Assembly: GCF_964204645.1 (NCBI RefSeq)
Contig: NC_134026.1
Coordinates: forward strand, 30,848,150 to 30,912,149
Reading direction: 5' to 3'
DNA: 64,000 nucleotides
Origin: Tubulanus polymorphus
Taxonomy: Eukaryota; Animalia; Nemertea
The translations under genes and the position numbers were made by a program. The notes below the pieces were generated by a model that was given only the letters and a program-made list of their open reading frames with translations, did no database searches and was not told the origin of the DNA. Positions within the stretch are counted from its first letter, which is position 1; each line of letters opens with the position of its first letter. This document shows, one piece after another, positions 9,276 through 34,582 of the stretch.

Positions 9276-9299
9276 CACCGGTTTTACTCGTGTCGGATC

Positions 9300-11208: not shown

Positions 11209-11235
11209 CGGTTAGATTAGATTGCGGTCTATTCT

Positions 11236-11352: not shown

Positions 11353-11389
11353 GACTAGAATAAGTTCGAGGTCAATATATATTTGTCAG

Positions 11390-11535: not shown

Positions 11536-13137
11536 TAAGGTATATACAGATAAGAAGCCCTTTATAATGCTAATATTAGGAGAGAATGAATAAATGAGCG
11601 TTATAATGAATTTGGCGTTACGAATTAATTCTAATCCTTTGAAAAATGTTGGATTTAACACCCGAACTCCCGGCCCTGCACATCACTATCAGCAATTATA
11701 CTGGGTTCAAAACCCGACCCCCTTAGCTGTATATCATCTATCCATAGGACGAACCTGGACAACCCTGGACATCCTCTATTCAGCATCAGGACCAGTATCT
11801 GCATCAGTATCAGTGATTACTGGGTTCGAACCCGGGACACCCCTGTACACACACTGTACAGCCCAGGGATCACTCTGAATCAATGCCATGGGTTCGATCG
11901 GTCTGATAACTCCAAGCCGAGAGAAAGGTGTCGATCTGTTGCCTGGACCCCAGACATTCAATCTGAAAGGGATGAGTGGAGGGTTCAAGCTGTGTATGAA
12001 GAGTGAACGCTTCAGATTATGTAGACGGTGACAAGTCTTAACGAGTGTCTGAAGGGTATGGGTGGGCACTATCCTCAGGGTAGTGCCAAGCTGCTGCAGA
12101 TTGATACATGCATTAATATAATTTAGGAGTAATCAGACTGATAACTGTATCTCTATCGCAGTGAGAATGGTTTGAAGTCATTTTCCTTAGTTAAATACAA
12201 ATCTTATGGATGAAAGTGAAATTGTTGTATTATCAAAATATGGATCGATGTAAATTAGCCGGGACCTGCTGGAAATCTGATCGCAATAAACGGGTTTTGT
12301 CTTAAACAGTATCGTATCAATGAGGTTCAACTGTCGTCTCGTTTCATTTCATTCACTTGCAGAGAAAAAAGAATCCATGTACAATAGACTTGACTAACTC
12401 GAATCAATTAAGACAAGGTGATAATTGTCACCTGCAGATCAAAAAATTTCAATGAAATAGTTCAATGTGTTTGGTCCGAGCCGATGTAAGCCTGGAGAAT
12501 CATTACTAAAAGTGACTGGACTTGAAATGATTCTAGTTAAGAGAGTCTACCGTACATTTAAAGAAAAAATAACACATACAATTTGTAGCGAACAACTGAC
12601 CACTAATGATACTGATGTTAAAACAACTTGTGGTTAGTAGTTCAATATGTATTGATAGTTCAATAGTTCAACCAATAATCAAACACCATAAAATCAATGT
12701 ATTCATCAATATCATAATCAAACAAGTCAAGAGCAAACCGAGTATCTTGAGTTTAGAGTTTAACATCGTCAGAATGAGATGCAACACAAAAACAATCATT
12801 CTAAAGAAATAAATGTATTTACAAAAACAAACGCAAAGTCACAAGTACATAATCTCCACATATACAGTGCATTCATTCATCACTGTAACAAAACTCTAAA
12901 CCAAAGTTTGACATCCTCAATTATCATTTACAAAATAATTTAACCAGCACAACAAAAACAAGAGAAGCCCTTTGAAATGTATGCATATAAAACGCTAAGT
13001 CGCAGCACATCAGTAATTAATAACCCACAATCAGATTCAACAACAAACCAGCCAATCAAACCATCAGTTCATATTTATTTTTGAATAGATGTACAATGTG
13101 TATTTACATTCAACCTATACTGAAGCAATCAGCCTCA

Positions 13138-13718
13138 GAGAAATTGGTCGGTACCTCTTGAACTACGATAACTCGCGGTAACAAACACTGAAAGTCCCGT
13201 ATTGACGGAGAAATTGGTCGGCATCTCAGGAACTACAATAACTCGCGGTAACAAACACTGAAAGTCCCGTATTGACGGAGAAATTGGTCGGCACCTCTCG
13301 AACCACGATAACTCGCGGTAACAAACACTGAAAGTCCCGATTTGACGGAGAAATTGGTCGGCATCTCTGGAACTACGGTAACTTGCGGTAACAATCACTG
13401 AAAGTCCTGATTTGAAGGAGAAATTGTTCGGCATCTCTGGAACTACGATAACTCGCGGTAACAAACACTGAAAATCCCAATTTGACGGAGAAATTGGTCG
13501 GCATCTCTGGAACTACGCTAACTCGTGGTAACAATCACTGAAAGTCCCGTATTGACGGAGAAATTGGTCGGCATCACTAGAACTACGATAACTCGCGGTA
13601 ACAAACACTGAAAATCCCAATTTGACGGAGAAATTGGTCGGCATCTCTGGAACTACGCTAACTCGTGGTAACAATCACTGAAAGTCCCGTATTGACGAAG
13701 AAATTGGTCGGCATCTCT
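13138..13718. repeat. 70-bp tandem repeat, about 8.5 copies
   Basis: aaattggtcgg (or aaattgttcgg) recurs every 70 bp from 13141 to 13701. Confidence 0.95.
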
Positions 13719-13719
13719 G

Positions 13720-15175
13720 ATCTGATCTTTTCCTGTCGTCTGATATTCTACAGCCAACCACAAGCTCAATACATGTACTACAATGTGAAAACACAAAATA
13801 TGAATAATGATATCATTTTTGAGACTTCTTTGAAATAAATTTCAATTATACCTGCTTTTTAGTAGATTCAGACACATGTCTCTTAGGTTTTTCATGAGGA
13901 AATTGATCTGCATCATCGGTATCGTTTCCATCTTGATATCTGGTATTGTGTGACGATTAACTCAATACTAACTACAACAACAATGTACTAAATAAACTAT
14001 GATTTTCATTCATAAGACTCTTCATAAAAACAAAATTCATCTAATTTCAATTTTACCTGATTTATAGTCAATTCAGATTCATGACTCGGACCTTGAGGAA
14101 TTTGCTCAATTCTTCCAGAACTCTGATATTTTCCTTTCCTCTGGTTTTGCGCATCTCTTACCACACAACAAAAGTCCACTGGCTACAACAAAAATACATA
14201 TAAGTAACCAGTTTCATTGAGTCAACTGTTCCTGCAAAGAAATTCATAAATTCAATTTTACCTGATTCATAGTCAATCAAGACATATGACATAGAAGAGA
14301 AATTGCTCAGAACTTCAGTTACTTTTCGTATCTTCTTGAACTTTCTGTTTGATGTGGAGATTCCCCAGAGTACTTCGATTTCTGGGTACAAACACTGAAA
14401 GAAGTCCCGAATTGACGGAGAAAATTTGTCAGCATCTCTGATCTGATCTTTTCCTGTCGTCTGATATTTTACGGCCAACCACAAGCTCAATACTACAATG
14501 ACAAAACACAAAATATGAATAATGATATCATTTTTTAGACTCTTCTTAAAAATAAATTTCAATTATACCTGCTTTATAGTCAATTCAGATTCATGACTCG
14601 GACCTTGAGGAATTTGCTCAACACTTCCTGAACTCTGATGTTTCCTTTCCTCTGGTTTTGAGCGTCTCTAACAACAACAGTCCACTGGCTACAACAAAAG
14701 TACATAAAATAAACATTACAAATCTTCTTTAAGTCAACTGTTCCTGCAAAGAAGTTCATATCAAGTACAATTTTACCTGATTCATAGTCAATTCAGACTC
14801 GATCGTGACACCTTAAATATTTCTCAACGACAACTGGAACAATCCTGGATGTTTCCCGTCAATCGTTTGGTATTTTGTGCTTGATGACCAAATCAATACA
14901 CGCTACAACAGGGAAATATGAAATACTCGTAATACTAACTTACCGTCCTAGTTGAGAACATTCTTATCTACAAAGAAATTTATAGCAATTTATACTATAC
15001 CTGATTTATAGTCTTTACTTAGTGAAAAGAACCTCAGGAACTTTCAGTATCATCTTGAACTCTCTGTTTGGGGAGTGGAGATTCCTCAGTAGAGTACCTC
15101 AGATTTCTGCTGACAGCAGACACCAATCCAACACTTCTCTTTCTGGTACTTTCATCTTTCTCTTTCCTCTCGTTT
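13720..15175 (-). pseudogene. Decayed multi-exon gene or spliced ncRNA built from tandem exon-intron cassettes
   Basis: Six GT-AG introns (13778-13851, 13972-14056, 14183-14261, 14493-14568, 14689-14776, 14903-15000), all CAG|GTA...TTGTAG; exons are mutually similar and some have stop codons. Confidence 0.6.
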
Positions 15176-15444
15176 TACAAATTGATATTTAATTATTTGA
15201 CATTTTGATATTTTTACAATCATAAAATTGATATTATGTTTATCTTTACATAATCGTTATTTGAGATTGTACAAGGAATGATACAAATAATACATTCCTT
15301 AACGTTCCTTAATTTTAAACTTACAGCTGTTTGTAAATTTTTTCCACACACAAAGATGGCATGCTGCATGCTGATCAATTTGCTAACTATGCGCATGGAC
15401 CCGCGGGTCTGCCAGTGCTGTTTAGTGCAATTGATGCATCGGTG

Positions 15445-15580
15445 CAAGTGCAAATTGAGACGTCAAGTGCAGAGTGAGACGTCAAGTGCAAAGTGGGACG
15501 TCAAGTGCATAGTGAGACGTCAAGTGCAAATTGGGATGTCAAGTGTAAATTGGGACGTCACGTGCAAATTGAGATGTCAA
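15445..15580. repeat. 19-bp tandem repeat, about 7 copies, carrying CRE-like GACGTCA
   Basis: Unit caagtgcaaattgagacgt. Confidence 0.85.
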
Positions 15581-15928
15581 TTGTTTTCACCAGTGTTTAC
15601 ATTGGTCGACCATCTTTCTGAAGATGCTTGAAGCAATTTGAATTCTAACAGTTTTTTACACTGTCGGCTCACAGAATTAGAAACTGGTTTACCTCATCAT
15701 CAGAGTTTAGACGCCGACAATTTTATCACTCCTTAAGTGGAGTAATATAATCAAGTCACTAACAATTCAGTTTATGTCAAAATTTAATTTTCAATTCAAG
15801 AAGGGAAAGGAGGGGAAGGCATTAAACCTCAATATCACCCCAGCCTTAGGTCACTTACAATTCAGTTTATGTAGCAATTAACTTGACAATTCAAGAGGGG
15901 AAGGGAGGGATCACTAAATCTCAATTTT

Positions 15929-18249
15929 AACACTTAACTTTCATCACTACCATTGATTTAGCAGTAAATCACCAAAAGTGTTTTGTAACACTAAACTTTC
16001 ATCACCACCAATTGATTTAGCAGTAATTCACCCTCAGTGTTTTGTAACACTTAACTTTCATCACCACCAATTGATTTAGCAGTAATCTACCCACAGTGTT
16101 TTGTAACACTTGACTCTTATCACCACCAATTGATTTAGCAGTAATTCACCCTCAGTGTTTTGTAACACTTAACTTTCATCACCACCAATTGATTTAGCAG
16201 CAATCTACCCACAGTGTTTTGTAACACTCGACTCTTATCACCACCAATTGATTTAGCAGTAATTCACCCTCAGTGTTTTGTAACACTTAACTTTCATCAC
16301 CACCAATTGATTTAGCAGTAATCTACCCACAGTGTTTTGTAACACTTAACTTTCATCACCACCAATTGATTTAGCAGTAATCTACCCACAGTGTTTTGTA
16401 ACACTTAACTTTCATCACCACCAATTGATTTAGCAGTAATTCACCCACAGTGTTTTGTAACACTTAACTTTCATCACCACCAATTGATTTAGCAGTAATT
16501 CACCCTCAGTGTTTTGTAACACTTAACTTTCATCACCACCAATTGATTTAGCAGTAATTCACCCACAGTGTTTTGTAACACCCAACTTTCATCACCATCA
16601 ATTGATTTAGCAGTAATCTACCCACAGTGTTTTGTAACACTTGACTCTTATCACCACTAATTGATTTAGCAGTAATTCACCCACAGTGTTTTGTAACACT
16701 TAACTTTCATCACCACCAATTGATTTAGCAGTAATTCACCCTCAGTGTTTTGTAACACCCAACTTTCATCACCACCAATTGATTTAGCAGTAATCTACCC
16801 ACAGTGTTTTGTAACACTTAACTTTCATCACCACCAATTGATTTAGCAGTAATTCACCCACAGTGTTTTGTAAGACTAAACTTTCATCACCACCAATTGA
16901 TTTAGCAGTAATTCACTCTCAGTGTTTTGTAACACTTAACTTTCATCACCACCAATTGATTTAGCAGTAATCTACCTACAGTGTTTTGTAACACTTGACT
17001 CTTATCACCACCAATTGATTTAGCAGTAATTCACTCTCAGTGTTTTGTAACACTTAACTTTCATCACCACCAATTGATTTAGCAGTAATTCACCCTCAGT
17101 GTTTTGTAACACTTAACTTTCATCACCACCAATTGATTTAGCAGTAATTCACCCTCAGTGTTTTGTAACACCCAACTTTCATCACCATCAATTGATTTAG
17201 CAGTAATCTACCCACAGTGTTTTGTAACACTTGACTCTTATCACCACTAATTGATTTAGCAGTAATTCACCCACAGTGTTTTGTAACACTTAACTTTCAT
17301 CACCACCAATTGATTTAGCAGTAATTCACCCTCAGTGTTTTGTAACACTTAACTTTCATCACCACCAATTGATTTAGCAGTAATTCACTCTCAGTGTTTT
17401 GTAACACTTAACTTTCATCACCACCAATTGATTTAGCAGTAATCTACCTACAGTGTTTTGTAACACTTGACTCTTATCACCACCAATTGATTTAGCAGTA
17501 ATTCACTCTCAGTGTTTTGTAACACTTAACTTTCATCACCACCAATTGATTTAGCAGTAATCTACCCACAGTGTTTTGTAACACTTAACTTTCATCACCA
17601 CCAATTGATTTAGCAGTAATTCACCCTCAGTGTTTTGTAACACTTGACTCTTATCACCACCAATTGATTTAGCAGTAATTCACCCTCAGTGTTTTGTAAC
17701 ACTTAACTTTCATCACCACCAATTGATTTAGCAGTAATTCACCCTCAGTGTTTTGTAACACTTAAATTTCATCACCACCAATTGATTTAGCAGTAATCTA
17801 CCCACAGTGTTTTGTAACACTCAGTGTTTTGTAACACTTAACTTTCATCACCACCAATTGATTTAGCAGTAATTCACCCTCAGTGTTTTGTAACACATAA
17901 CTTTCATCACCACCAATTGATTTAGCTGTAATCTACCCACAGTGTTTTGTAACACTTGACTCTTATCACCACCAATTGATTTAGCAGTAATTCACTCTCC
18001 ATGTTTTGTAACACTTAACTTTCATCACCACCAATTGATTTAGCTGTAATCTACCCACAGTGTTTTGTAACACTTGACTCTTATCATCACCAAATGATTT
18101 AGCAGTAATTCACCCTCAGTGTTTTGTAACACTTAACTTTCATCACCACCAATTGATTTAGCCGTAATTCATCCAGAGTGTTTTGTAACACTTTACTTTC
18201 ATCACCACCAATTGATTTAGCAGTAATTCACCCACAGTGTTTTGTAACA
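15929..18249. repeat. 59-bp satellite (A), about 39 copies
   Basis: Unit aacacttaactttcatcaccaccaattgatttagcagtaattcaccctcagtgttttgt. Confidence 0.97.
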
Positions 18250-18289
18250 TAATGTGTAATTTAATAATGTAATTATTTAATAATTCATG

Positions 18290-19308
18290 ATGAAATAATG
18301 TTTAATGTAATAATCTTTATTTTAATAATGTTTAATGTAATAATTCAAGAAGTCCAGGGAAGGAGGTAAGAATTAACACCCAGCAGCAAGTTGCAGTATT
18401 AAAGGAGGTCATCAGTGTTGTAACACACTGACAATTCAATTGATTTGTCACGTTTCTACATGACAGTTGAAGAAGGAAGGAGGAGACTCCTGCACTCAAT
18501 ATCACCCCAAAACAGAGCCAGCAGCAAGCAGCAGTATTTAAGGAGGATGATTCATGGTGTTATAATGTTTAAATTAATAATTTTTATTGTAATAATGTTT
18601 AATGTAATAGTTCAAGAAGTTAAGGGAAGGAGGTAAGAATTAACACGCAGCAGCAAGCAGAAGTAATAAAGGAGACCATCAGTGTTGTACCACACTGTCC
18701 ATTTAGTTTGTTTGTCACGTTTCTACATGACAGTTGAAGAAGGAAGGAGAAGACTCCTGCACTCAATATCACCCCAAAACAGAGCCAGCAGCAAGCAGCA
18801 GTATTTAAGGAGGATGATTCATGATGTTATAATGTTTAATGTAATAATTCTTATTGTAATAATGTTTAATGTAATAATTCAAGAAGTTCATGGAAGGTGG
18901 TAAGAATTTACACCCAGCAGCAAGCAGCAGTATTAAAGGAGTCCATCAGTGTTGTAACACACTGACAATTCAGTTTGTTTGTCACGTTTCTACATGACAG
19001 TTGAAACAGGAAGGAGGAGACTCCTGCACTCGATATCACCCCAAAACAGAGTGTATTAATTAACACCCAGCAGCAAGCAGCAGTATTAAAGGAGTCCATC
19101 AGTGTTGTAACACACTGACAATTCAGTTTGTTTGTCACGTTTCTACATGATAGTTGAAGAAGGAAGGAGGAGACTCCTGAACTCAATATCACCCCAAAAC
19201 AGAGTGTATTAATTAACACCCAGCAGCAAGCAGCAGTATTAAAGGAGGTCATCAGTGTTGTAACAAACTGACAATTCAGTTTGTTTGTCACGTTTCTACA
19301 TGACAGTT
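18290..19308. repeat. 153/267-bp satellite (B), left block
   Basis: cacccagcagcaag-like start recurs at 18377, 18644, 18911 (267 bp) then 19064, 19217 (153 bp). Confidence 0.93.
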
Positions 19309-19409
19309 AACAACTTTCAGTTGCAAGGAACCAAAATGAAGCTATCAAACAATAGCATATTTGAGTATATCACTTTTAAAATCAATAATGTGATAATAAT
19401 TTGCTGATA

Positions 19410-21128
19410 CAATATATACAATGAACCAACACCAGCGACATTTCAAAGATTCAACCACCACAAAGCTATCGATGGATAGCTGTTTTGAATATTTATATAC
19501 TTTAAACGTTAAGTCGTAATGAGGACGATCAGGAAACAAAATCAATCCCAATTCACTGACATATATTACATTATATACACAAAACCAACACCAGCGATAT
19601 TTCAATAATTCAACCACCACAAAGCTATCGATGGATAGCTGTTTTGAATATTTATACATTTAAAACGTAAAGTCGCAATATGGACGATCAGGAAACATAA
19701 TCAATCCCAATTCACTGACATATATTACAATATATACACAGTACCAACACCAGCGACATTTCAAAGATTCAACCACCACAAAGCTATCGATGGATAGCTG
19801 TTTTGAATATTTATACATTTAAAACGTAAAGTCGCAATAAGGACGATCAGGAAACATAATCAATCCCAATTCACTGACATATATTACAATATATACACAG
19901 TACCAACACCAGCGACGTTTCAAAGATTCAACCACCACAAAGCTATCGATGGATAGCTGTTTGAATATTTATATACTTTAAACGTTAAGTCGTAATGAGG
20001 ACGATCAGGAAACAAAATCAATCCCAATTCACTGACATATATTACATTATATACACAAAACCAACACCAGCGATATTTCAATAATTCAACCACCACAAAG
20101 CTATCGATGGATAGCTGTTTTGAATATTTATACATTTAAAACGTAAAGTCGCAATAAGGACGATCAGGAAACATAATCAATCCCAATTCACTGACATATA
20201 TTACAATATATACACAGTACCAACACCAGCGACATTTCAAAGATTCAACCACCACAAAGCTATCGATGGATAGCCATTTTGAATATTTATACATTTTAAA
20301 CGTAAAGTCGCAATAAGGACGATCAGGAAACATAATCAGTCCCAATTCACTGACATATATTACAATATATACAAAGTACCAACACCAGCGACATTTCAAA
20401 GATTCAACCACCACAAAGCTATCGATGGATAGCTGTTTTGAATATTTATATACTTTAAACGTTAAGTCGTAATGAGGACGATCAGGAAGCATAATCAATC
20501 CCAATTCACCGACATATATTACAATATATACACAAAACCAACACCAGCGACATTTCAAAGATTCAACCACCACAAAGCTATCGATGGATAGCTGTTTTGA
20601 ATATTTATACATTTAAAACGTAAAGTCGCAATAAGGACGATCAGGAAACATAATCAGTCCCAATTCACTGACATATATTACAATATATACAAAGTACCAA
20701 CACCAGCGACATTTCAAAGATTCAACCACCACAAAGCTATCGATGGATAGCTGTTTTGAATATTTATACATTTAAAATGTAAAGTCGCAATAAGGACGAT
20801 CAGGAAACATAATCAATCCCAATTCACTGACATATATTACAATATATACAAAGTACCAACACCAGCGACATTTCAAAGATTCAACCACCACAAAGCTATC
20901 GATGGATAGCTGTTTTGAATATCTATACATTTAAAACGTAAAGTCGCAATAAGGACGATCAGGAAAGATAATCAATCCCAATTCACTGACATATATTACA
21001 ATATATACAAAGTACCAACACCAGCGACATTTCAAAGTTTCAACCACCACAAAGCTATCGATGGATAGCTGTTTTGAATAATTATACATTTAAAACGTAA
21101 AGTCGCAATAAGGACGACCAGGAAACAA
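19410..21128. repeat. 159-bp satellite (C), 11 copies
   Basis: gctatcgatggatagc recurs about every 159 bp from about 19465 to 21054. Confidence 0.95.
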
Positions 21129-21139
21129 AACTCGCCAAA

Positions 21140-22362
21140 ACTCAATATCACTCCATAACAGAGTGTATTAATTAACACCCAGCAGCAAGCAGCAGTATTA
21201 AAGGAGGTCATCAGTGTTGTAACACAATGACAATTCAGTTTGTTTGTCACATTCCTACATGACAGTTGAAGAAGGAAGGAGGAGACTCCTGCACTCAATA
21301 TCACCCCAAAACAGAGCCAGCAGCAAGCAGCAGTATTTAAGGAGGATGATTCATGATGTTATAATGTTTAATGTAATAATTCTTATTGTAATAATGTTTA
21401 ATGTAATAATTCAAGAAGTTCATGGAAGGTGGTAAGAATTTACACCCAGCAGCAAGCAGCAATATTAAAGGAGTCCATCAGTGTTGTAACACACTGACAA
21501 TTCAGTTCGTTTGTCACGTTTCTACATGACAGTTGAAACAGGAAGGAGGAGACTCCTGCACCCGATATCACCCCAAAACAGAGTGTATTAATTTACACCC
21601 AGCAGCAAGCAGCAGTAGTTAAGGAGGTCATCAGTGTTGTAACACACTGACAATTCAGTTTGTTAGTCACGTTTCTACATGACAGTTGAAGAAGGAAGGA
21701 GGAGACTCCTGCACTCGATATCACCCCAAAACAGAGTGTATTAATTTACACCCAGCAGCAAGCAGCAGTAGTTAAGGAGGTCATCAGTGTTGTAACACAC
21801 TGACAATTCAGTTTGTTAGTCACGTTTCTACATGACAGTTGAAGAAGGAAGGAGGAGACTCCTGCACTCAATATCACCCCAAAACAGAGTGTATCAATTA
21901 ACACGCAGCAGCAAGCAGCAGTATTTAAGGAGGTCATCAGTGATGTAACGCACTGACAATTCAATTTGTTTTTCACATTCCTACATGACAATTGAAGAAG
22001 GAAGGAGGAGACTCCTGCACTCAATATCACCCCAAAACAGAGCCAGCAGCAAGCAGCAGTATTTAAGGAAGATGATTCATGGTGTTATAATGTTTAATGT
22101 AATAATTCTTATTGTAATAATGTTAAATGTAATAATTCAAGAAGTTCATGGAAGGTGGTAAGAATTTACACCCAGCAGCAAGCAGCAGTATTAAAGGAGG
22201 TCATCAGTGTTGTAACGCACTGACAATTCAGTTTGTTTGTCACGGTTCTACATGACAGGTGAAGAAGGAAGGAGGAGACTCCTGCGCTCAATATCACCCC
22301 TAAACAGAGTGTATCAATTAACATCCAGCAGCAAGCAGCAGTATTGTAGGAGGTCATCAGTG
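21140..22362. repeat. 153/267-bp satellite (B), right block
   Basis: Same units and same orientation as 18290-19308. Confidence 0.93.
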
Positions 22363-22363
22363 A

Positions 22364-22591
22364 TGATTTAGTCATTCACCCACAGTGTTTTGTAACACTT
22401 AACTTTCATCACCACTAATTGATTTAGCAGTAATTCACCCACAGTGTTTTGTAACACTTAACTTTCATCACCACTAATTGATTTAGCAGTAATCTACCCA
22501 CAGTGTTTTGTAACACTTAACTTTCATCACCACTAATTGATTTAGCAGTAATTCACCCACAGTGTTTTGTAACACTTTACTTTCATCACCA
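22364..22591. repeat. 59-bp satellite (A), right block, about 4 copies
   Basis: Same unit as 15929-18249; an isolated remnant also at about 23180-23240. Confidence 0.92.
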
Positions 22592-23534
22592 CAGCAAAGA
22601 ACTAAATGTACACAAACAATGAGTGTCTTATTTAATTGTTGATGAGAGAGGAGAGAGGAGAGGAGGCATGTACACCTAACACAACGTTTAAAACTCAATA
22701 TCACAACCAAAACAGAGTTGAATGATAGCAAGCATCAGCAACATGTAGTTTTCAAATAAGGAATTAATCAGTATTGTAAGTCACATCTATTTGACAATTC
22801 AAGAAGGCAAGGGAAGGAGAAGAGACTCCAATACTCAATATCACCCCTTAAACAGAGTGGAATGAGCAACATGCAGTAGCAAACAACAGTATTTGCCGTA
22901 GTAGCAAACAACAGTATTTGCCGTTTTTAAAGGAGATGAAAGGAGTATCTTCTGTATTTGATACTCGTTTGATGTCATAGCAAGGCCATTACCGGGAGTT
23001 ATAGAGAACAAAAGGAGAAGCCATGCCACCACGACATTTTAATTGTCTATGATTTTTATATTGTATACAAAAACGGCACGATATATCACCTCGTAGCAGA
23101 GGAAGGAGGTAGAACAAACCACAAGATCAGTACATCTATCAATTTTTCATTATATGTATTATTGTTCCAAGACACCAACTTTCAGTGTTTTGTAGCACTT
23201 TTATCACCACTAATTGATTTAGCAGTAATTTACACTTTCATTGTATTCAGATTTGTGTCTTACTTATTTCGTGATGAGAGAGGAGAGAGAGGAGTCTTGT
23301 AGGAAATGTAGCCATACACCTATCAAAGCTTTTTTACAAACGTAAATCAGTTTATTCTAGACTATGGACGTTTGTTGCTGGAGGAAACAAACTTTATTCC
23401 AATCGAAACCCTTTTAGCTTTTTCTTAGAGACATCGAACCCACACGACGTCTGGCAAAGGCTTCAAACATTTTGATAACTGTTCCCATAGAGCCAATGAT
23501 AAAACCAGCATTTATCATCATCAAACCAAAGCTG

Positions 23535-24348
23535 AAAACTGCAACCAGTGAGGGGAAGTATGCACAATCATTGAAATGATTGTTCATAGCTGCAACCAAT
23601 GGAGTGAACTGCAACCAGTGATGGGGAAGTATGCACAATCATTGAAATGATTGTTCATAGCTGCAACCAATGGAGTGAACTGCAACCAGTGATGGGGAAG
23701 TATGCACAATCAATGAGATGATTGTAAATAGCTGCAACCAATCAAGTGAACTGCAACCAGTGATGGGGAAGTATGCGCAATCAATGAGATGATTGTTCAT
23801 AGCTGCAACCAATCAAGTGAAATTCAGCCAGTGAGGGGAAACTATATTTCAAACCAGTGAAGGGAAAGTATGCACAATCAATCAGATGATTGTTCATAGC
23901 TGCAACCAATGGAGTGAACTGCAACCAGTGAGGGGGGAAGTATGCACAATCAATGAGATGATTGTTCATAGCTGCAACCAATGAAGTGAACTGCAACCAG
24001 TGAGGGGGGAAGTATGCACAATCAATTAGATGATTGTTCATAGCTGCAACCAATCAAGTGAACTGCAACCAGTGAGGGGGGGGAAGTATGCACAATCAAT
24101 TAGATGATTGTTCATAGCTGCAACCACTGGAGTGAACTGCAACCAGTGAGGGGGAAGTATACACAATCAATGAGATGATTGTTCATAGCTGCAACCAATG
24201 AAGTGAACTGCAACCAGTGAGGATAAGTATGCACAATCAATGAGATGATTGTTCATAGCTGCAACCAATCAAGTGAACTGCAACCAGTGAGGGGAAACTG
24301 TATTTCAAACCAGTGAGGGGAAAGTATGCACAACCAATGAGATGATTG
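23535..24348. repeat. About 71-bp tandem repeat, about 11 copies
   Basis: Unit atgcacaatcaatgagatgattgttcatagctgcaaccaatcaagtgaactgcaaccagtgaggggaagt with variable G-run. Confidence 0.93.
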
Positions 24349-24479
24349 TCGTAATGGTATCAATGCTACGAATGTATGTGAAAAGTGAAAAGTAATAGTT
24401 TGAAACCAAGATTGAATGCATTCATTCTGTTGTATTGAATAATGTGAGATCCGATGAAAATTATGAAAAAAGAAAAAAC

Positions 24480-24990
24480 AAACTACTATCTACAAATTTA
24501 CAATATTTACAAGAAAATTAAAAAGAGAAATAAAAACGACTATTTACAAATTTACAATATTTACAAGAGAAATAAAAACTACTATTTACAAATTTACAAT
24601 ATTTACAAGAGAAATAAAAACTACTATTTACAAATTTACAATATTTACAAGATAGAGAGAAAGAGAGCGAAAGAGAGAGAGAGGAGAGTGAGGAGAGAGA
24701 GAGGAGGGAGAGAGGAGGAAGGATGAAGGAGAGGGGTGAGAGGAAGAAAGGAGAGAGAGGAGTGAGTTAGTGGGTTAAAGAAAGAGGAAGAGAGAGTTAG
24801 TGGGTTAGAGAAAGAGGGAGAGAGTTAGTGGGTTAGAAAAAGAGGAAGAGAGTTAGTGGGTTAGAGAGAGAGAGGGAAAGGATAGAGAGAGGGAAAGGAT
24901 AGAGACAGAGAGGGAAAGGATAGAGACAGAGAGGGAAAGGATAGAGACAGAGAGGGAAAGGATAGAGACAGAGAGGGAAAGGATAGAGAA
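24480..24990. repeat. 42-bp repeat followed by AG-rich low-complexity and 21-bp repeats
   Basis: aagagaaataaaaactactatttacaaatttacaatatttac x4; gagggaaaggatagagacaga x4-5. Confidence 0.9.
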
Positions 24991-25044
24991 AGGTAGAAAA
25001 AGAAGGGACGATAAAAACGATAAAACATATGATAAAAACAGTAA

Positions 25045-25260
25045 AACATATGGATAAAAACGGTTAAAAAGAGGCAGTTTAACGTCATACCACAGGACAA
25101 ATAGATAAAAATCACTGATAAAATGTATGGATAAAACGTATTGTTAAAATGAGGCAGTTTAACGTCGTACCACAGGACAAACAGATAAAAATCACTGATA
25201 AAATGTATGGATAAAACGTATTGTTAAAATGAGGCAGTTTAACGTCGTACCACAGGACAA
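25045..25260. repeat. 80-bp tandem repeat, about 3 copies
   Basis: gaggcagtttaacgtc at 25071, 25151, 25231. Confidence 0.9.
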
Positions 25261-26130
25261 CTTGAAAATAGAGGTACACTAGCAATACTACTTATATGTT
25301 ACTAGGTACAGTATTTTAGACAATTCTATAAAATTATCTCAACCTCTGCACTACCAAATATCAATTCGACAAAAAGTCATCTCTAAAAACATTTGTATGA
25401 AATAAAACAACAAAACATAACGTAGCATTGAATTAATATTAATGTTATCAGAAGCTGAAAATCTGAAATCAACCATCAGCCATAAATGAGGAGGCGGGAC
25501 TAATGCAATGAAATAATATCAATGCTCCAAACTTATAGGTTAAAATCTTGTTAAAACAATAGATCCAACAAGTGATATCAGTATCAAACTAAGATTGAAT
25601 GCATTCATTCTGTTGTTTTGAATATTAAAATTATTCAATAGAATTAAAAATATTAATTATCAATTAAATCTTTATCAAAATTTGCACTAAAATAGATTTG
25701 ATGTATAGATATTATGAAGTTTAGAAAATTAAAAATTTAAGATTATATTTGAAATGTTTAAATAATCATTAAAATCTTAAGTTAAAAAGATATCTAAAAA
25801 TATTTACAAGTAGAAATCAAAACCAATTTAAAAAAAATATAATATATACAAATAAAAAGCTATTTATAAATTTACAACATGTACAAGTACGGATAAAATG
25901 TGTCGATCAATTTGATGAAATATTTTATATTATTTGTCAATCATAATCGGAACCCAAGTGATTTCAGAATGGAATAACTGGGCCAGGCCAATCACTCACT
26001 CGATGATCATCAATTACTGGTACTACACAACCACAGAAAGAGTGGTTTTTACCACGCGGTATATTAGGCCAGGTGCACCTCCCAATAATAATGCCGCCAT
26101 TATGTTTGGCTTTTTGAGTGTTGATATGTA

Positions 26131-26492
26131 CATCGATACATCCTCAATCACTAGGGTTTTATTGTCGCCCACCGGCACTCACGCTTACACAAACCCCAGT
26201 CACAAACCCTTCATTGGTCTCTTACATTGTCCAAGATATTTCGTGTCGACAGGTTGCTGCTAAGCAGCCACTAGTCTTTATATCTAGTCAATCAGATGTG
26301 TAGCGGACTTGCGAAAAAACAATGCATCTGATTGACTTAATACATAGACTGGTGGCTGCTCAGTGGTAACCTGTCTACCCAAGAAATCTTGAGCAATGTA
26401 GTAGACCACTGAAGAGTTGGCAGCCAGGATTTATGTTGGCATGAGCTTTGGCAGACGACAATTAAAACCTGGCAAGTGAGGATGATATTGAT
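26131..26492. repeat. Imperfect about 170-bp inverted repeat with 26-nt loop
   Basis: ...agtcaatcagatg (ends 26298) and catctgattgact... (starts 26325); similarity extends outward. Confidence 0.8.
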
Positions 26493-26767
26493 ATTGAATG
26501 AAAAAGCTGCATGAAATGTGTACGAGAACCTTGATAGCAGTGAAAAAAGATAAAAACAAGGGGTGCAGGAAGACCATGCCCTAGATTCTTAAAATTAAGA
26601 TAATATTATATATCAATGACTTGAGAGTAAATTCATTACTAATTAATCTAATTAACTGCAAGTTCATCTAACAATAAAAATCAAATCATCTATTCTATAT
26701 CTCCTCATGCAATTATCAATAACAATAAAACAGGCGGGTAATTGAAACTGGTGTTGACGCTAAAATA

Positions 26768-27452
26768 TTTTCAACAATGATGAATTTACTCTCAGTTCAT
26801 TCATTGTTTTAATGATGATCCTAAGAGTGATTTCAACAATGATGAATTTACCCTCAGTTCATTCATTGTTTTAATGATGATCCTGAGAGTGATTTCAACA
26901 ATGATGAATTCACCCTCAGTTCATTCATTGTTTTAATGATGATCCTGAGAGTGATTTCAACAATGATGAATTCACCCTCAGTTCATTCATTGTTTTAATG
27001 ATGATCCTGAGAGTGATTTCAACAATGATGAATTTACCCTCAGTTCATTCATTGTTTTAATGATGATCCTGAGAGTGATTTCAACAATGATGAATTTACC
27101 CTCAGTTCATTCATTGTTTTAATGATGATCCTGAGAGTGATTTCAACAACGATGAATTTACCCTCAGTTCATTCATTGTTTTAATGATGATCCTGAGAGT
27201 GATTTCAACAACAATGAATTTACCCTCAGTTCATTCATTGTTTTAATGATGATCCTGAGAGTGATTTCAACAATGATGAATTTACCCTCAGTTCATTCAT
27301 TGTTTTAATGATGATCCTGAGAGTGATTTCAACAATGATGAATTTACCCTCAGTTCATTCATTGTTTTAATGATGATCCTGAGAGTGATTTCAACAACGA
27401 TGAATTCACCCTCAGTTCATTCATTGTTTTAATGATGATCCTGAGAGTGATT
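26768..27452. repeat. 62-bp satellite, 11 copies
   Basis: Unit atttcaacaatgatgaatttaccctcagttcattcattgttttaatgatgatcctgagagtg. Confidence 0.96.
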
Positions 27453-27699
27453 TTACGACTTAAACTTAAACTAAACTAGACCTTAATTAACTGGAACGAA
27501 TTAAATTTAAAACAGCGAAAATTATTAAGATGACTTAACAAAAACAAACTTATCTAAACTAAGGCTAACTTGAAACACACTAGTGATTAATTATAAACGT
27601 CATGCTCACAATTTAACAAATCCCAGTTCAACAGTTGTGCAATTGTATGTATTTAAATTCTTGTATCCAAATCAAACTGTGGAATTGAGTATGGTTTTG

Positions 27700-28188
27700 T
27701 ATGGAACGAAATAAATAAAATAAAATGGGGTGATATCTTGAGTGTATTTTCTATATGATGTTTTCAGCGACATATTTTGTTATGATGACATCAAAGTAGC
27801 GTTAATTCATATCATTTCCAAAAATACTATAGATTATCATTACGTTCAAAGACTTGTTTCGAAAAAGCCGAGATGACGTCCAATAAAAATAATAACATGA
27901 CTGCAAGCATTTAGGCTAGAGAAATTCTAATTCAAAGATAGTATTGGACTTTACTACTATTTGTATATTGTGCAGGAAAATAAAGTTTGTTGTAACTGTT
28001 TGTACTACAAGTGGTTGTATTATTATATTTATCTGATGTCATTGAACTAATAATCTGACACGCCACCTAGTAGTGATTTTCTGAATCTACGCTTCAATAA
28101 TCTACGTCAATTTCATACGTCGAGATGCTGAAAATATCATATGAAAAATACACTTGGATTGTTTTTTTTTATTTATCGCGTTCCATTA
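27700..28188. mobile_element. Old MITE-like element with about 70-bp degenerate TIRs
   Basis: atggaacg..ataaataaaa...agtgtattttctatatgatgttttcagc is inverted relative to gctgaaaatatcatatgaaaaatacact...ttttatttatcgcgttccat. Confidence 0.55.
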
Positions 28189-28409
28189 TTGTGAAACACC
28201 GACTGAAAATGAGTGGATTTTCTGTTGTTGGTAGAAAATTGATAATAAAATTATAAGAAAAAAGGAAAAGACAGTATGAGAAAAAGTTCTCAATCACATT
28301 TCATATTTACTAAGCCTATATCAACTACGAGTAAAAGCTCTTTATGCGTGCACTATATACAACATGGGCCTTTTATATAACCACTATTTATATCTGTGTT
28401 GTGGACCAC

Positions 28410-29760
28410 GTAATTGTGTCAAAGAGTATTCGGTGATAAAACCTGGACCTTCAGTTATTCCATTCTCATGAAATCACTGGGGTTCGAATATACACAGTGA
28501 TAGTCAAATATAAAATATTTCATTAAATTGATCTTTTAGTTAGTATTGAAATACAAATAAAACAATGTTTTAAAAGAATATATATACAAATGAAATATTT
28601 TTTAAAATATATACGAATAAAACAGTTTAAAAAGATACTTTGAGATAAAATATATACAAATGAAATAGTATAATATTCAGATAAAATAGTTTTTAGATAT
28701 CATAGGTATTTCAAAATTCAGATATGAAATAGTTACTTTAATAGATTAAAATTAAGATAAAATAGTTTTTAGATATCATAGGTATTTTAAAATTCAGATA
28801 TAAAATAGTTTCTTTAATAGATTAAAATTCAGATAAAATATTTACATTAAAATTGAAATAATTTAAAATCGTTTCTAGAATGGTCTTAAGATACGTGTAA
28901 AATTGTTTTTAGAATTTTTTTAGAATTACTAGTTTAGAAGTATCAATGAAATTGTTTTCAGATATGAATATTTCAAAATTGATGCCGATGAAATAGTTTT
29001 AGATGGATCACCTTGATCAATCACAATATTGAACCAAACCCCAAAAGACCTGTAATCAATCAGTGAAAGAATCAAATAAGTGATAATAATTCATATAAGG
29101 TATGATTTTGGGCAATAGTAAAAACGAAACCAGGAAAATAATTAATCATATTCCGCAGATATTCAAAAACTGCAAATAATTTTGAGAACTGGTATGAAAT
29201 TTTGGACAAGTTAGGATTGGAAAAGTTCAAATTTTTGGAAAGTTAAGATCAAGGACTCAAAATTTGTATTAAATTGGAATTTCAGCACTGAAGGACTCAA
29301 AATTTAGGAATTTTGTTCATTCTCGGCAAGTGAAATAACTGGTACCACAAAAATACAACAAACTGTTCAACATGTGCAGTCTGACTGGATCTCAGTGAGT
29401 AGAAATCTATTGATGATGCTGGATTTCGTGACCTCTTCACAACAATAATTACCAAGTGGCTGAGAAACTACAAGTAGCCACATTTCATGTAATAAATTTG
29501 TAGAATATATCGCATACTTTAATACAACTTATGCCATTTTTGGGGACCAAGGAAGCACCTGAGAACCTGATCTGATTAACTGCAATATGAATGATAGACC
29601 TCTTGCAAACAACTTCATCGTAGATTTCTTAAATCTATTGATAATTCACTCTCAACAGCTTTAATCTGACGTGTGTTTAGTGCATTGCTCGCCTACGTGG
29701 AAACAATTCCACGCTCTATCAACCACATTTCAATTGCTAAACGCAATTCCTGCAATCTAG
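28410..29760 (+). pseudogene. Decayed, intron-containing Mutator (MULE)-like transposase remnant
   Basis: Hand-translated fragments in MULE order: WYEILDKLGLEKF (cf. RKI..LGL..Y), KFVEYIAYFNTTY (cf. F..YF..TW), EPDLINCNMNDRPLANNF (cf. P..WN....RTNN), SPTWKQF (cf. HP..w.f); stops and frameshifts present. Confidence 0.45.
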
Positions 29761-29854
29761 ACCCCAATCGAGGACCAGGAGTTACTTATGTCAGAGTGGC
29801 GTCTATTACTGAGTTGCTCGATTGTTATTAACTTAACAATTTTCCTTTTAGACC

Positions 29855-30048
29855 ATCTCCTCTATCATATCTCTCTAAACTCCTCTCTCTCATATCTCCC
29901 TAAACTCCTCTCTCATATCTCCATAAACTCCTCTATCATATCTCCATAAACTCCTCTATCATATCTCCATAAACTCTTTATTCCCTGAACCTCCTCTCTC
30001 ATACCTCCCTGAACCTCTTCTCTCATATATCAGACCTCCTCTCTCATA
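29855..30048. repeat. About 23-bp pyrimidine-rich tandem repeat
   Basis: ctcctctctcatatctccataaa variants. Confidence 0.85.
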
Positions 30049-30921
30049 TGCCTTATTGATCTCAACAAGAGATGCAGACTTATCATCAACAAGCATTTTG
30101 AATTCTCAACCCTTGATCCTGGTGATCGTTAGAATCAGTAGAGATCAATATCAATCAGTAAAACCCGATCACTGATGTGATAACAACGAATTTTCCAATC
30201 CAAGATCTTTATTTTATACTTTTTTTATCAGAGATTCTTAATCGATGCATTTTTGCAGATTTTTGCATTTTCCTATTCTATCCTATGTTCAATTATGAAC
30301 TCATAAATTCATGCATTGATCACCGATCCAGATGGTGATGGTTTCACACACAAGAAATGTAATGAAATTGATTACCGTAGTCTTTGCTGTGGTTTCCTTT
30401 CTTGTGCAATTTTTAATCCAGGCAATCTCATGTATATAAATATATATTCCTTTTCCTTATGAGTAACATTTTAAATCCTTCCGATCACATGTGAAGGATT
30501 TCCCTCCGTCGTTGAGCATTAGATATTAACATTTCAATCATTCAAGTTTTCATGTCATATTAAATTTATCTTTAATTCTGTAATTAGAAAAACAAATATG
30601 TTAATAACGATATAATGGTTTTACACTTGACGTATAAACGTCATAGTATTTGGGGGGGAGGGGGTAACATGGAACATTGAACAATCTGTTTCAATGTAGT
30701 TTCCTAAGGAATCGCATTATGTGAAACATAGCTGTTCCTTCTCCATGTTATTTTCAGCTTCATAAGGAAACACATTATGTGTGAAACATAGCTATTCCTT
30801 CTCCATGTTCCGATAAAGTTTGATAAAGAATCACATTATGTGAATCATAGCTGTTCCTTTTGATTTGAAAAATCCACTTTTTTCAAACTCCATAGGAGTT
30901 ATTGTAGGAATTGATTCCCTG

Positions 30922-31815
30922 CATATCTCGAAAGACATTTACAACGGCCGACCATAGTAGTAAGTAGTGGCAAGGATGGTAAATGCTTCAGCATCATGAG
31001 AAGCAAAATGAACCTTAATAATAAGGTATTGTAATAGAAGTAGTAGCAAGGATGGTCTATATCCCGAAAGACATTTGAAAAGGCTGACCATAGGATTAAA
31101 ATTGATGACTCCTAAGAAGGCTACTTCCACAATCAGGTGGTATGGATGGTTACTGCTGCTAAGTAGTGGCAAAGATGGTAAATGCTTCAGCATCATGAGA
31201 AGCAAAATGAACCTTCATGATAAGGTGTTGTAATAGAAGTAGTAGCAAGGATGGTCTATATCCCGAAAGACATTTGAAAAGGCTGACCATAGGATTAGGA
31301 TAGATGACTCCTAAGAAGGCTACTTCCACAATCAGGTGGTATGGATGGTTACTACTGCAAAGTAGAAGCAAAGATGGTAAATGCTTCAGCATTGTGAGAA
31401 GCACAATGAATCTTAATAATAAGGTATTGTAATAGAAGTAGTAGCAAGGATGGTCTATATCCCGAAAGACATTTGAAAAGGCTGACCATAGGATTAAAAT
31501 TGATGACTCCTAAGAAGGCTACTTCCACAATCAGGTGGTATGGATGGTTACTGCTGCTAAGTAGTGGCAAAGATGGTAAATGCTTCAGCATCATGAGAAG
31601 CAAAATGAACCTTCGTAATAAGGTGTTGTAATAGAAGTAGTAGCAAGGATGGTCTATATCCCGAAAGACATTTGAAAAGGCTGACCATAGGATTAGGATA
31701 GATGACTCCTAAGAAGGCTACTTCCACAATCAGGTGGTATGGATGGTTACTACTGCAAAGTAGAAGCAAAGATGGTAAATGCTTCAGCATTGTGAGAAGC
31801 ACAATGAATCTTAAT
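30922..31815. repeat. 199-bp tandem repeat with alternating variants (398-bp dimer), about 4.5 copies
   Basis: ORF-track repeats offset by 199; ggattaaaattgatg alternates with ggattaggatagatg. Confidence 0.93.
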
Positions 31816-32256
31816 GAATATGGGTCGGAACAAAAATGGTGTGGAACACAGTGGGACGTACAGTCAAAAAAAGAAATAAATAAATGATATAAAATGTATA
31901 TGAATGAGATGATGGATAAAAATTTCCTTTCATCCAAAAAATAAATAAATTGATGAAATGATTATGAATTTTTTTATATTTTTATCTTTTTAAATTTTTT
32001 TGGAGATTAACCGTAAAACTCCATAAAATCCATATTTACAAGGCTGGTTTTTATTTTTTCATATTTTTTTCAAATAAAAATAAGGAAGGACTGCACGCCC
32101 ACTGGTTCAAGGAGTGTTGACAGATATTTAACACTGCGCAACCTGCAGATCGACGAAGGAGGAAGGGAAAACTGAGTTTCAAGAAGTGCCGATCTGCAGA
32201 CGTGCATGGGCTGATGTTGTTGCCCGGGTGATGGCGAGTGAAGGGGCTATATTATA

Positions 32257-33125
32257 TTAATGAGTTCGCCTGCGTTTAACTAATTCATATTTGCCTTTAA
32301 AGGCCCCTTCAACGTCGCGGAGCATTTTAATAGGATCATTATACTCGATGTTTCTTGACCAACCAGGGCCGCGCGCGATGAGCTCGACAGCGGGGGAAGG
32401 TGGTGGCCCCGCTGGAGCGCCCGATGTCGATGCCTGGGCGGGCGTATTATTATTTTCATAATCATCATCACTTTCTTCATCTTCAAGTCTTCTTTTTCTA
32501 TTTCTTGTATTATTTGATCTAGTTGTCGAAGTTGTAGTAGTACTAGTCGCAGTTGAAGTAGGTGGTCGTGGTCGTCTTTTCTTAGTAGTGGTAGTAGTGG
32601 TAGTAGTAGTAGAATTAGTAGTAGTTGCAGGTGGTTGTCGTGGTCGTCGTGGTGGTCTAATATCATCGCGAGGTGGTGGTGTTGCGGGCCCTGGTGGTGG
32701 CGCTCCAGGAGTGGCGAATTCCTCCTCATCACTGCTCTCCTCCTCAAAATTTGGTTGTGGAAGTGGGGGAGGACGAGCTGCACGTTTGCCTTTTTTTTTT
32801 GATTTCGGACGCCCCGTACCTTCTGTATAATCTATTTCTTTTGTATTACGACGGGGCGACCGACGCAGTGAAGGCGTCTGAAGCTGTGGCGCCTCTGTCG
32901 GGGTCACCACTGCAGGGGCGACCTCCTGCTCCACATTTACGGGAGAAGCAGGGTCCACCTCCTGCAAAGGAACCAACTCAAATGGTGGAATTATTTTAGG
33001 AGGAGTTGGCTCCTTAGGCCCGCAGATATTTGCAACGCACCTTTTGTAAACGTTTTTCAATCCCGGAAGTGCTCTGCGGGCTGCTTCAGACTGGTCTTTC
33101 ATTATATTATCAATTATATCCAAAT
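32257..33125 (-). CDS. Terminal exon of an uncharacterised Pro/Arg/Thr-rich disordered protein, probably TE-borne
   Basis: 288 open codons, GC-richer than flanks; strong acceptor ttttttcattccag at 33126-33127; RRSPRR, GRPKSKKK and RNRKRR basic motifs; the upstream exon candidate ending at 33216 has stops in the required frame. Confidence 0.55.
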
Positions 33126-34582
33126 CTGGAATGAAAAAAAAAAAACATTAAGGATCATGCATATTACACATAAATGACATGTTCGCATATAATTATCATA
33201 TTTGTAAATAGTAACCTATAAAATAATGCAGTTATCCAATAGTTGAATGTGATGTGATGGAAAAAACGAAGAGAGTTGGGTAAGAAGGGTCATTTGAACG
33301 TTTGGAAGCGATCGTAAGCTTATTTTGCGAGAAGTGATCATGTCACTGGTTGTACGATACGGTTGTACAACTAACTCCGTTGTAACTACACTTTTAACCC
33401 CTTTCATGATTTGCATCATCCATTACATAATAACGATAAGTCGACAGTATATTATCAGTGAGGCTGATGATTGAATCTTTCGATACACATTTTATGTCTT
33501 ATATACTTACATATTTCAGAACCAACCCTGTATGTGGACGGGTACACTTTTGTTAATCCATTAATGGAACTACTGATTGTAATAAATTACATCCTACCAT
33601 TACCTTGACAATCAATTTTGGTAGCAAATCATGAATCAAAAATACACTTGATTTTTTTCTGGGGTGATGATGTACCAGGTTCCAGGTGACAAAAACTATA
33701 CATTATAATGAATGGAATTGTTACCCATGACCCTGGTTTCAAAATCTGGGAACCTCTTTGGAATAACACGCATGATAACTTTTCATTTATCAACCAATTG
33801 AAGTGGAAACTTTGCAACGATAAAAGATCTAATTTAAAACAACAGACGTCGCGCTGTATCAACAAAAAATTAATTGATAATTCCTTTTATTCAGTAATTA
33901 CTTTTCAAATGGACGAGTGAAAAATGAGTCCAAACTTCAGAAATGTATTCAATTATTTTGTAGAACACTTTTTACTTGCATACAGGGCCACACTCCATCC
34001 ACGGTAAGTGGGAGAACTTGCATTTCATTTCCTCTGAACATGAGGCAAGTGTGTACATATTATATTTTCTTCTGAATTTTCTCAAAAATGAAGATAAAAA
34101 TATGACTGATTTTTTTTTATTTTATTGTTTAAACTATTTACAGCATGAATTAAAACAGAAAAACGACACAAATAATTTCACTTCGCTGAATCTAAAACCA
34201 GTAAAAACCATTTCACACAACACTGCCCATACTGCACCTTCAGAAACAACACTCGCTACAAATATAATACATTCATTTTGAAGAACAATATTTCACTATC
34301 AACATAAATGGCTGTAATTTATTTTTCCCAATAGAATATTCATTGTCAGCAATAGGCCTATCGGTACTCCACATATTCATTACATAACTCACCTAGAATG
34401 TATAATTCATCGTACAGCAGCCATTCATTTATTCAGATCAACAAAATTCCATGCACAGCCATTTCAGCTGATATTCACCATACAGTAGCCTCCGCCTAAA
34501 CTGCTACAGTTGCACCGGGTTTGTAAGAATTGCAAAAATCAATTGATGAAAAGATTTATTGAGCCTAATAGCGGTCAAAATT

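Follow-up and report, generated by a model that had tools for sequence, protein, structure and literature searches.

Mutator-like elements (MULEs) generate target site duplications (TSDs) of 8-11 bp (PMC6446971), and the closest known counterparts of the locus described here are the Pack-MULEs and Pack-TIRs (e.g., Drosophila Ssk-FB4), nonautonomous elements with cargo between terminal inverted repeats (TIRs) and TSDs of 8-9 bp (PMC8277862, PMC6431247). The Pack-MULEs of Jiang et al. (2004) are reported to be mostly 1-2 kb long with none over 7 kb (PMC6431247), natural cut-and-paste cargo in animals is described as small and mostly single copy (PMC6431247, PMC8277862), and multicopy Pack-TIRs have been proposed to arise by template-switch capture followed by transposition as a unit (PMC8277862). 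Here we analyze a stretch of 64,000 nucleotides from the nemertean Tubulanus polymorphus (contig NC_134026.1, here C2:30,848,150-30,912,149; henceforth the window), in which an initial annotation had recognized, at 12,600-33,530, a block resembling a giant non-TIR MULE with satellite arrays and accessory genes. We conclude with moderate confidence that the block is a copy of a ~30-kb nonautonomous cargo that lacks a transposase, carries one predicted two-exon gene under purifying selection, was likely moved in trans via TIRs borrowed from at least two unrelated Mutator-type families, and was likely reshuffled later by recombination between copies.

The view of the block as a unit that looks mobile, has copies collinear with it, and holds satellite arrays along with an accessory gene is borne out. 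It belongs to a dispersed multicopy family. Searches of the genome (268 Mb in 77 contigs) with four separate segments of the block returned the same loci in the same order each time. At least 38 collinear copies make up the family; they occupy 32 loci spread over 9 contigs and are 76-100% alike, depending on the segment. The segment at 28.87-29.85 kb gave 40 scored matches among 46 candidates, two being internal duplicates and 38 near full length, the latter made up of 31 dispersed copies and 7 that belong to an array on contig C6 (C6:3.87-4.09 Mb), where units of ~33 kb follow one another head to tail. Fourteen of the dispersed copies were retrieved in full, and each of these is collinear with the window copy. 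The boundaries first drawn are wrong: the family spans from ~10,826, a limit set by the match to copy c19, to 40,993, a limit common to many matches, and the extended part contains passengers resembling short interspersed nuclear elements (SINEs), MITEs (miniature inverted-repeat transposable elements), and long interspersed nuclear elements (LINEs).

Examination of the termini revealed that the earlier failure to find TIRs or a TSD is true of the window copy, a truncated one without TIRs, but that the non-TIR status does not extend to the family. Its complete copies carry MULE-type TIRs of 69 bp or longer and TSDs of 8 or 9 bp, and these TIRs belong to two unrelated families, termed here alpha and beta. 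The 33.5-kb copy c4 (C2:27.76-27.79 Mb) is bounded by 69-bp alpha TIRs that are 91% alike and by a perfect 9-bp TSD, the 30.9-kb copy c29 (C1:31,533,415-31,564,319) has beta TIRs and an 8-bp TSD (7 of 8 positions identical), and in c31 both beta TIRs are paired without a TSD. The TSD lengths of c4 and c29 are each that of their own TIR family elsewhere in the genome; for instance, 8 of 10 stand-alone alpha MITE pairs have a TSD of 9-10 bp. TIR-precise junctions recur among the copies: the right beta end is found in c14, c22, c26, c29, and c31, all with different flanks, the left alpha end in c3, c4, and c23, and the right alpha end in c4 and c10/c12. In a tree of the left ends, ten beta-group copies form a clade (support of 0.999), and c29 and c31 share with a stand-alone beta element inverted arrays of 67-bp subterminal repeats at both ends.

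That beta element (C2:17,544,206-17,580,883; 36.7 kb) has a pair of beta TIRs, an 8-bp TSD, and the inverted arrays of 67-bp repeats just noted. It contains an open frame of 857 amino acids (aa), in which an OTU domain (E = 9e-7) and a CXC domain are recognized, as well as an AAA-like open reading frame (ORF), and it also holds a separate, apparently nested FLYWCH-MULE with 15-bp arrays. The 857-aa protein has twenty relatives in other genomes, including those of cnidarians and other metazoans, and these relatives bear no family name. In an alignment of 13 relatives, D46, D118, and E247 do not vary, and matches of relatives to the Pfam ISL3 and MULE families are weak. The structural model of the transposase (predicted local distance difference test [pLDDT] score of 86) has as its best match the ISCth4 transposase (E = 1e-7), which we take to be a member of the IS256/Mutator group. 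The beta element encodes a transposase with a DDE (Mutator/IS256) fold and is the likely motor of the beta-ended cargo copies. The initial link of the block to Mutator-type elements was rightly drawn. A second, frameshifted copy of the transposase gene is located at C3:13.08 Mb, and at C3:13.07 Mb, between a beta TIR and this second copy, an A32-type packaging ATPase (E = 2e-9) stands beside an integrase-like ORF, the two presumably constituting a Polinton-like insertion. Descent of the block itself from the beta element was considered and rejected, as there is no protein or DNA similarity past the ends. A USP-Mutator element carries neither alpha nor beta TIRs.

The initial annotation had instead envisaged a decayed autonomous non-TIR MULE of the VANDAL type that would itself encode a transposase, a FLYWCH protein, and a factor counteracting silencing. 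The variable tandem arrays, a body with a methylation footprint, the single accessory gene with in-frame repeat variation, and a short TANNFENW stretch that by eye resembles the region of the MULE catalytic E would all be in keeping with such an element, but no copy shows an above-chance transposase or FLYWCH signal and the complete copies have TIRs, which makes this account highly improbable. With respect to the alleged MULE transposase at 28.4-29.8 kb, Pfam gave no match in the three forward frames of 28.87-29.85 or 27.46-28.66 kb with stops read through, tblastn with ORFs from 32 MULE loci of the same genome found no match at the segment, and a profile of 13 FLYWCH-MULE ORFs of this genome reached at best E = 0.25 in any copy, and there elsewhere than in this segment. 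Frameshift-aware alignment across 18 copies yielded 18-26 bits versus 22±3 in 60 shuffles and 21±3 in 78 control windows, four distant true MULEs giving 35-73 bits. Whichever of the six frames is considered, the ratio of nonsynonymous to synonymous differences (pN/pS) in the segment is 0.75-0.94; among its 84 indels, 21 are multiples of three. Similarly, the supposed FLYWCH-like remnant at 30.06-30.7 kb has no Pfam or hidden Markov model match, a pN/pS of 0.67-1.02, and in-frame indels in only 6 of 45 cases, and the "spliced cassette pseudogene" at 13.7-15.2 kb turned out to be an internal repeat, now decayed, that is a few hundred bases long and has no coding signal. Over ~20 copies, the pN/pS of these three segments is 0.64-1.02 whatever the frame, and most of their indels disrupt the frame, as in the intron of the gene described below. 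A candidate coding ORF at 25.9-26.3 kb was rejected for want of a coding signal. The profile of the beta transposase likewise has no match in any block copy. We conclude from these sequence comparisons that the block family encodes no detectable transposase or FLYWCH domain.

The family nevertheless has features in common with VANDAL elements (PMC5735166, PMC6446971, PMC13317346): both are large and linked to Mutator, their arrays gain and lose units between copies, and, as in VANC, an accessory protein is present whose ends are conserved and whose middle is variable and repetitive. Unlike VANDAL elements, in which TIRs are lacking or short and degenerate, the family has no transposase (VANA), has TIRs in its complete copies, and encodes a protein with no DUF1985, DUF287, or Ulp1 domain, and indeed no Pfam match at all. 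The VANC21 motif is not enriched in the block (1 occurrence in 30 kb versus 4 in 34 kb of flank). Because there is no transposase, TIRs are present, and no VANC domain is found, we place the cargo family outside VANDAL.

The one ORF whose intactness had been correctly recognized, basic and Pro rich, is open at 32,257-33,147 on the reverse strand. We predict that it is the second exon of a two-exon gene coding for 322 aa, part of which falls outside 12,600-33,530. The protein region from exon 2 has a helical start, a Pro/Thr/basic/acidic middle of variable length, and a conserved C-terminal portion of ~45 aa, and a splice acceptor is present ~125 nt upstream of the ATG of exon 1. Of the 48 candidate matches to exon 1, 45 are free of stops, with 17 identical in protein; all 45 belong either to copies of the family or to a rearranged one at C2:30.39 Mb, and a search for a parental gene of the host was negative. 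The donor GTAAG is kept in all 41 exon-1 alignments, indels in exon 1 are in frame, and the acceptor is present in every exon-2 copy examined. In 20 of 27 copies, the frame of exon 2 continues without a break as far as the conserved end and codes for 248-298 aa. The ratio of nonsynonymous to synonymous substitution rates (dN/dS) is 0.21 for exon 1 in pairwise comparisons and 0.28 by minimum changes (approximate p = 6e-8), 0.31 for the last 56 codons (approximate p = 4e-5), and 0.48-0.51 for codons 59-125 of exon 2, values as low as these not being seen in other reading frames. The gene, as predicted, is thus under purifying selection, with a dN/dS of 0.2-0.3 in its conserved parts.

Outside the family, we found no relatives of this protein. 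Pfam has no family matching exon 2 and none above the cutoff for exon 1, the 90% clusters (of lengths 158-506 aa only) contain no homologue of exon 2, and the Atlas gave no usable match. A profile search of 1.84 billion representatives returned two matches, both unrelated repeat proteins, and among PDB sequences there was nothing below E = 0.19. The fold predicted for the C-terminal 60 aa is of low confidence (pLDDT of 63, predicted template modeling score of 0.29), and the N terminus, as judged by eye, may be death domain-like. In three sequencing runs of unrecorded type, the intron is covered just as the exons are, and among the joints listed for them none links two exons; these runs have no bearing on expression.

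On the basis of these observations, we propose that template switching would have enclosed the core between the ends of MITEs or of elements, that Mutator-type transposases acting in trans would then have moved it as one unit by cut and paste, and that it would have changed ends between TIR families at least once. Copies without paired TIRs, the window copy among them, may be one-ended or repair-completed events or may have lost their ends later, and recombination between copies would homogenize segments and erode ends. Several results weigh against this scenario. The window copy begins within a 24-bp array and ends 2 nt past a 145-bp hairpin, with neither TIR nor TSD, and in a scan of 27 copies the TSDs were convincing in c4 and c29 only, leaving 25 without a convincing one; a 9-bp match in c18 is at an ill-defined boundary and likely due to chance. 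Even the TSD of c4 could be that of an alpha MITE that was already in place when the block inserted into it, because ~790 bp of an alpha MITE is present at the left end of this copy. The right-end tree does not cleanly resolve the beta group, c14 is a hybrid, and no autonomous alpha partner was found, a 9.4-kb alpha element having a LINE-like ORF and no transposase. Furthermore, the ends are ragged over 1-2 kb among copies, often entering a dispersed 72-76-bp minisatellite, c10/c12 have 3.3 kb and 5.1 kb of flank in common, as in plain duplications, and a third sharp end with an ACGGT motif, neither an alpha nor a beta TIR, occurs at six loci. As for the gene, exon 2 is broken in 7 of 27 copies, its first 58 codons show no significant constraint (dN/dS of 0.61-0.81, p = 0.16), and the p values of the selection tests are only approximate because the copies are related, converted, and not independent.

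Many of these points would be explained if the block were akin to the primate core duplicons (e.g., LCR16a/NPIP), which are gene-bearing cores of 20-30 kb copied to numerous sites. Their flanks vary from site to site, their copies undergo gene conversion, and the repeats in their last exon vary in frame, but they lack TIRs and TSDs. Under such an explanation, break repair or template switching would have copied the gene-bearing segment to distal sites, the TIRs would be bystanders from the landing sites, and selection on the gene would serve the host. The family indeed resembles core duplicons in its conserved gene-bearing core, variable flanks, and interlocus conversion. Its ragged and nested ends and the lack of a convincing TSD in most copies are as this explanation predicts, and so is the distribution of the loci, 27 of 32 being in the outer fifth of a contig half (p = 9e-15) and all 32 within the outer 35%. 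The copies, moreover, are mosaics, the window copy being 99-100% like c2 over 31.8-40.4 kb but 76-90% like it over 25.9-29.3 kb, a stretch in which its likeness to c18 is 94-100%, and the junction of the C6 array is a 4-bp microhomology join that takes in 2 kb of flank. What this explanation does not predict is that TIR-precise junctions of two families recur at unrelated loci with TSDs of the length proper to each family, or that the beta-ended copies form a clade with inverted beta subterminal repeats at both ends; some cargo copies thus differ from core duplicons in the very structure of their termini. We hold a core-duplicon-like origin, with repair-based copying, to be unlikely, though it is the main contender.

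The ACGGT end invites a further comparison with nonautonomous rolling-circle elements of the Helentron type, for which the ACGGT-ending hairpin would be the fixed end, the other end would be ragged, and the 76-bp minisatellite would be a signature. Six loci with differing flanks stop within 1 nt of one ACGGT motif, two of them truncated on the other side, the window copy and c7 stop at the hairpin hpA, many arrays that stand by themselves consist of 76-bp units interspersed with a related hairpin, and a head-to-tail array is present. Nonetheless, the left ends have no fixed terminus in common, the two copies with TIRs and TSDs do not fit such elements, and the C6 units are joined by microhomology inside flank DNA rather than end to end. 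We therefore deem a rolling-circle origin improbable. The two hpA hairpins themselves were also considered as TIRs of the window copy and rejected, as they are direct rather than inverted repeats, the family runs past both of them elsewhere, and no TSD is associated with them.

Returning to movement in trans by borrowed Mutator-type ends, we also considered what the gene might contribute. The observed/expected ratio of CpG is 0.64 in the block body versus ~1.0-1.1 in the flanks (window positions 1-10,800 and 41,000-64,000), and transitions are found at 47% of CpG positions in the body versus 18% at GpC (p = 6e-25). Around exon 1 and upstream of it (39.2-40.8 kb), CpG transitions are not in excess (24-26% versus 22-29% at GpC). 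This decay in the body and its lack at 39.2-40.8 kb point to a body methylated in the germ line and an unmethylated promoter. That the block is CpG depleted and the host flank is not suggests that methylation in Tubulanus polymorphus is aimed at repeats. In our scenario, the gene would be expressed in the germ line from the unmethylated promoter, which is among its weakest steps. The basic patches of the protein, its disorder, and the fact that it is confined to the family suggest a nuclear factor that would serve the element, and we tentatively suggest, while rating it somewhat unlikely, that this basic, largely disordered, and probably nuclear protein would help the family persist, most likely via the chromatin of the element itself. 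A VANC-like action is possible (PMC5735166): the protein has no known DNA-binding domain, but it is constrained by purifying selection, and the arrays differ strongly in length from copy to copy. At a bolder level, the family could be an animal hitchhiker, a 30-kb core without a mobility enzyme that outlives its carriers by switching between unrelated Mutator-type ends and keeps a selfish gene that protects or licenses the family, through VANC-like anti-silencing or germ line drive on its own satellites; this we regard as doubtful. An amplified gene beneficial to the host fits the data too.

At the level of the family, the hallmarks of a Pack-MULE are present, namely, TIRs (c4, c29, and c31), a partner with a Mutator-type DDE transposase (for beta only), and no transposase of its own; the window copy lacks the TIRs. 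As in Pack-MULEs and Ssk-FB4, the transposase would act in trans, there are several copies, and an intron-containing gene is carried; unlike them, the unit is ~30 kb long with at least 38 copies versus the four of Ssk-FB4 (PMC8277862, PMC6431247). The family further differs from Pack-MULEs in that one core is combined with two unrelated TIR families and other ends, in that no parental host gene was found, and in its satellite content of ~40%. What is new here is the size of the unit, the number of its copies, its association with two carrier families, and the orphan gene on which selection acts. The Drosophila Ising TE, described as composite units between foldback elements (PMC6431247), is comparable in that a large segment is moved between foldback or Mutator-type ends, the beta ends having inverted 67-bp arrays, but the present family is one fixed 30-kb core in high copy with its own conserved gene rather than an occasional rearrangement. 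For the 76-bp minisatellite and the hairpin edge units, the bivalve tandem-repeat MITE DTC84 may offer a lead, though MITEs of this type are small and noncoding, unlike the cargo family (PMC3879986). We found no description of the cargo family or of cargo changing its TIR family in the literature searched, subscription journals, Repbase, and supplements being outside the search.

Table 1. Features of the window copy and its constituent repeats and exons.
Feature	Positions in window	Strand	Remarks
Whole copy of the ~30-kb cargo family	10,826-40,993	no strand	Collinear with 14 wholly fetched copies and C6 array units
24-bp array, left edge	10,841-11,207	+	Also the left edge of c19
Fragment of high-copy SINE-like repeat	11,249-11,350	-	Within insertion ~11,209-11,389 missing from c19
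~145-bp hairpin hpA, left copy	11,390-11,537	+	76% alike to right hpA, same orientation
Degenerate units of dispersed 72-76-bp minisatellite, B-box-like motif	11,659-11,890	+	Borders one or both ends of most copies
70-bp array	13,138-13,719	+	2-11 units among 15 copies
Decayed internal repeat (formerly cassette pseudogene)	13,720-15,150	no strand	Without coding signal
59-bp array	15,928-18,249	+	2-42 units among 15 copies
Composite of 15/153/267-bp, 159-bp, and 59-bp arrays	18,249-22,592	+	
71/72-bp, 42-bp, GA-rich, and 80-bp arrays	23,537-25,260	+	
62-bp array	26,769-27,453	+	4-21 units among 15 copies
Unique family segment	28,870-29,850	+	Alleged MULE remnant (unsupported)
Unique family segment	30,060-30,700	-	Alleged FLYWCH remnant (unsupported)
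60-bp and 199-bp arrays	30,701-31,820	+	
Predicted last coding exon, 2 nt + 288 codons + stop	32,257-33,125	-	After polypyrimidine tract and CAG; phase matches exon 1
Predicted phase-1 intron, 6.1 kb	33,126-39,224	-	GTAAGT...CAG
LINE-like 3' fragment	34,584-35,025	-	Missing from most copies; no Pfam match
High-copy palindromic MITE-like insertion	36,019-36,157	no strand	Missing from most copies
High-copy SINE-like insertion	37,230-37,534	+	~10-bp direct repeat on each side; missing from most copies
23-bp and 35-bp arrays within intron	37,605-38,678	+	
Predicted first coding exon, ATG + 33 codons + 1 nt (100 nt)	39,225-39,324	-	Ends at GTAAGT
Likely promoter/5' region	39,325-40,840	-	CpG observed/expected of 1.0-1.2; CpG transitions not in excess
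~145-bp hairpin hpA, right copy	40,850-40,993	+	Copy stops 2 nt past hairpin

The estimate of about ten different tandem arrays was, if anything, low, as more than ten were found, covering 52% of 12,600-33,530 and 40% of the full extent (Table 1). Their periods are 70, 19, 59, 15/153/267, 159, 71/72, 42, 21/28, 80, 62, 76, 23, 60, and 199 bp, and the numbers of units differ strongly between copies (ranges of 2-42, 0-22, and 0-35 in 15 copies). A motif common to the arrays was considered and rejected: 41 7-mers are present in at least 3 of 20 units versus 21 in shuffles (maximum of 36), but these 7-mers stem largely from the related 59-, 153-, 159-, 199-, and 267-bp units. The motif of the 72-76-bp minisatellite has at least 324 exact matches genome wide versus 0 in the control; this minisatellite, with its RNA polymerase III B-box-like motif, has a 178-bp hairpin interleaved with its units, often in divergent pairs, and its loci have 0.5-1 kb of flank in common. 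A degenerate tRNA-like sequence is discernible at 40,420-40,500, upstream of the gene, where two end groups diverge, although neither ARAGORN nor Rfam calls it, and no tRNA or Rfam RNA was found by these programs anywhere in the block. The LINE label of the fragment in the intron is presumed from a motif, and the contig depth over the SINE-like element at 37,230-37,534 is ~50-fold above that of the block body.

Aberrant versions of the family were also observed. At least two C6 units hold an internal duplication with a diverged, inverted exon-1 paralogue, the rearranged copy at C2:30.385-30.392 Mb has six exon-1 paralogues and several exon-2 pieces, and a 1-kb mini version at C2:31.39 Mb has the left body joined straight to part of the hairpin. 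A promoter-proximal insertion preference is unsupported: what we take to be a YY1-like motif occurs at 8 of 54 ends versus 3 of 54 controls (p = 0.2), and the CpG content is alike. In the window, the block is situated between an IL-17 gene (Pfam E = 1e-13) on one side and MGAT2 (E = 2e-18) on the other, and an exon at 56,179-56,502, with no Pfam match at E = 0.01, presumably codes for a dye-decolorizing peroxidase-like region, as judged by eye from a motif.

The beta element and its relatives merit description as a giant MULE-like family in their own right. If our reading of the cargo is true, a 30-kb unit in ~38 copies with TSDs from two families would mean that the movement of large genes with introns is routine for Mutator-type transposases in an animal and that a change of carriers allows cargo to persist. 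Pack-MULEs and core duplicons, which are usually kept apart, would then be joined in one family that offers dozens of natural replicates. The orphan protein, being under selection, would have a function amenable to testing, including the question of whether animal elements carry anti-silencing factors.

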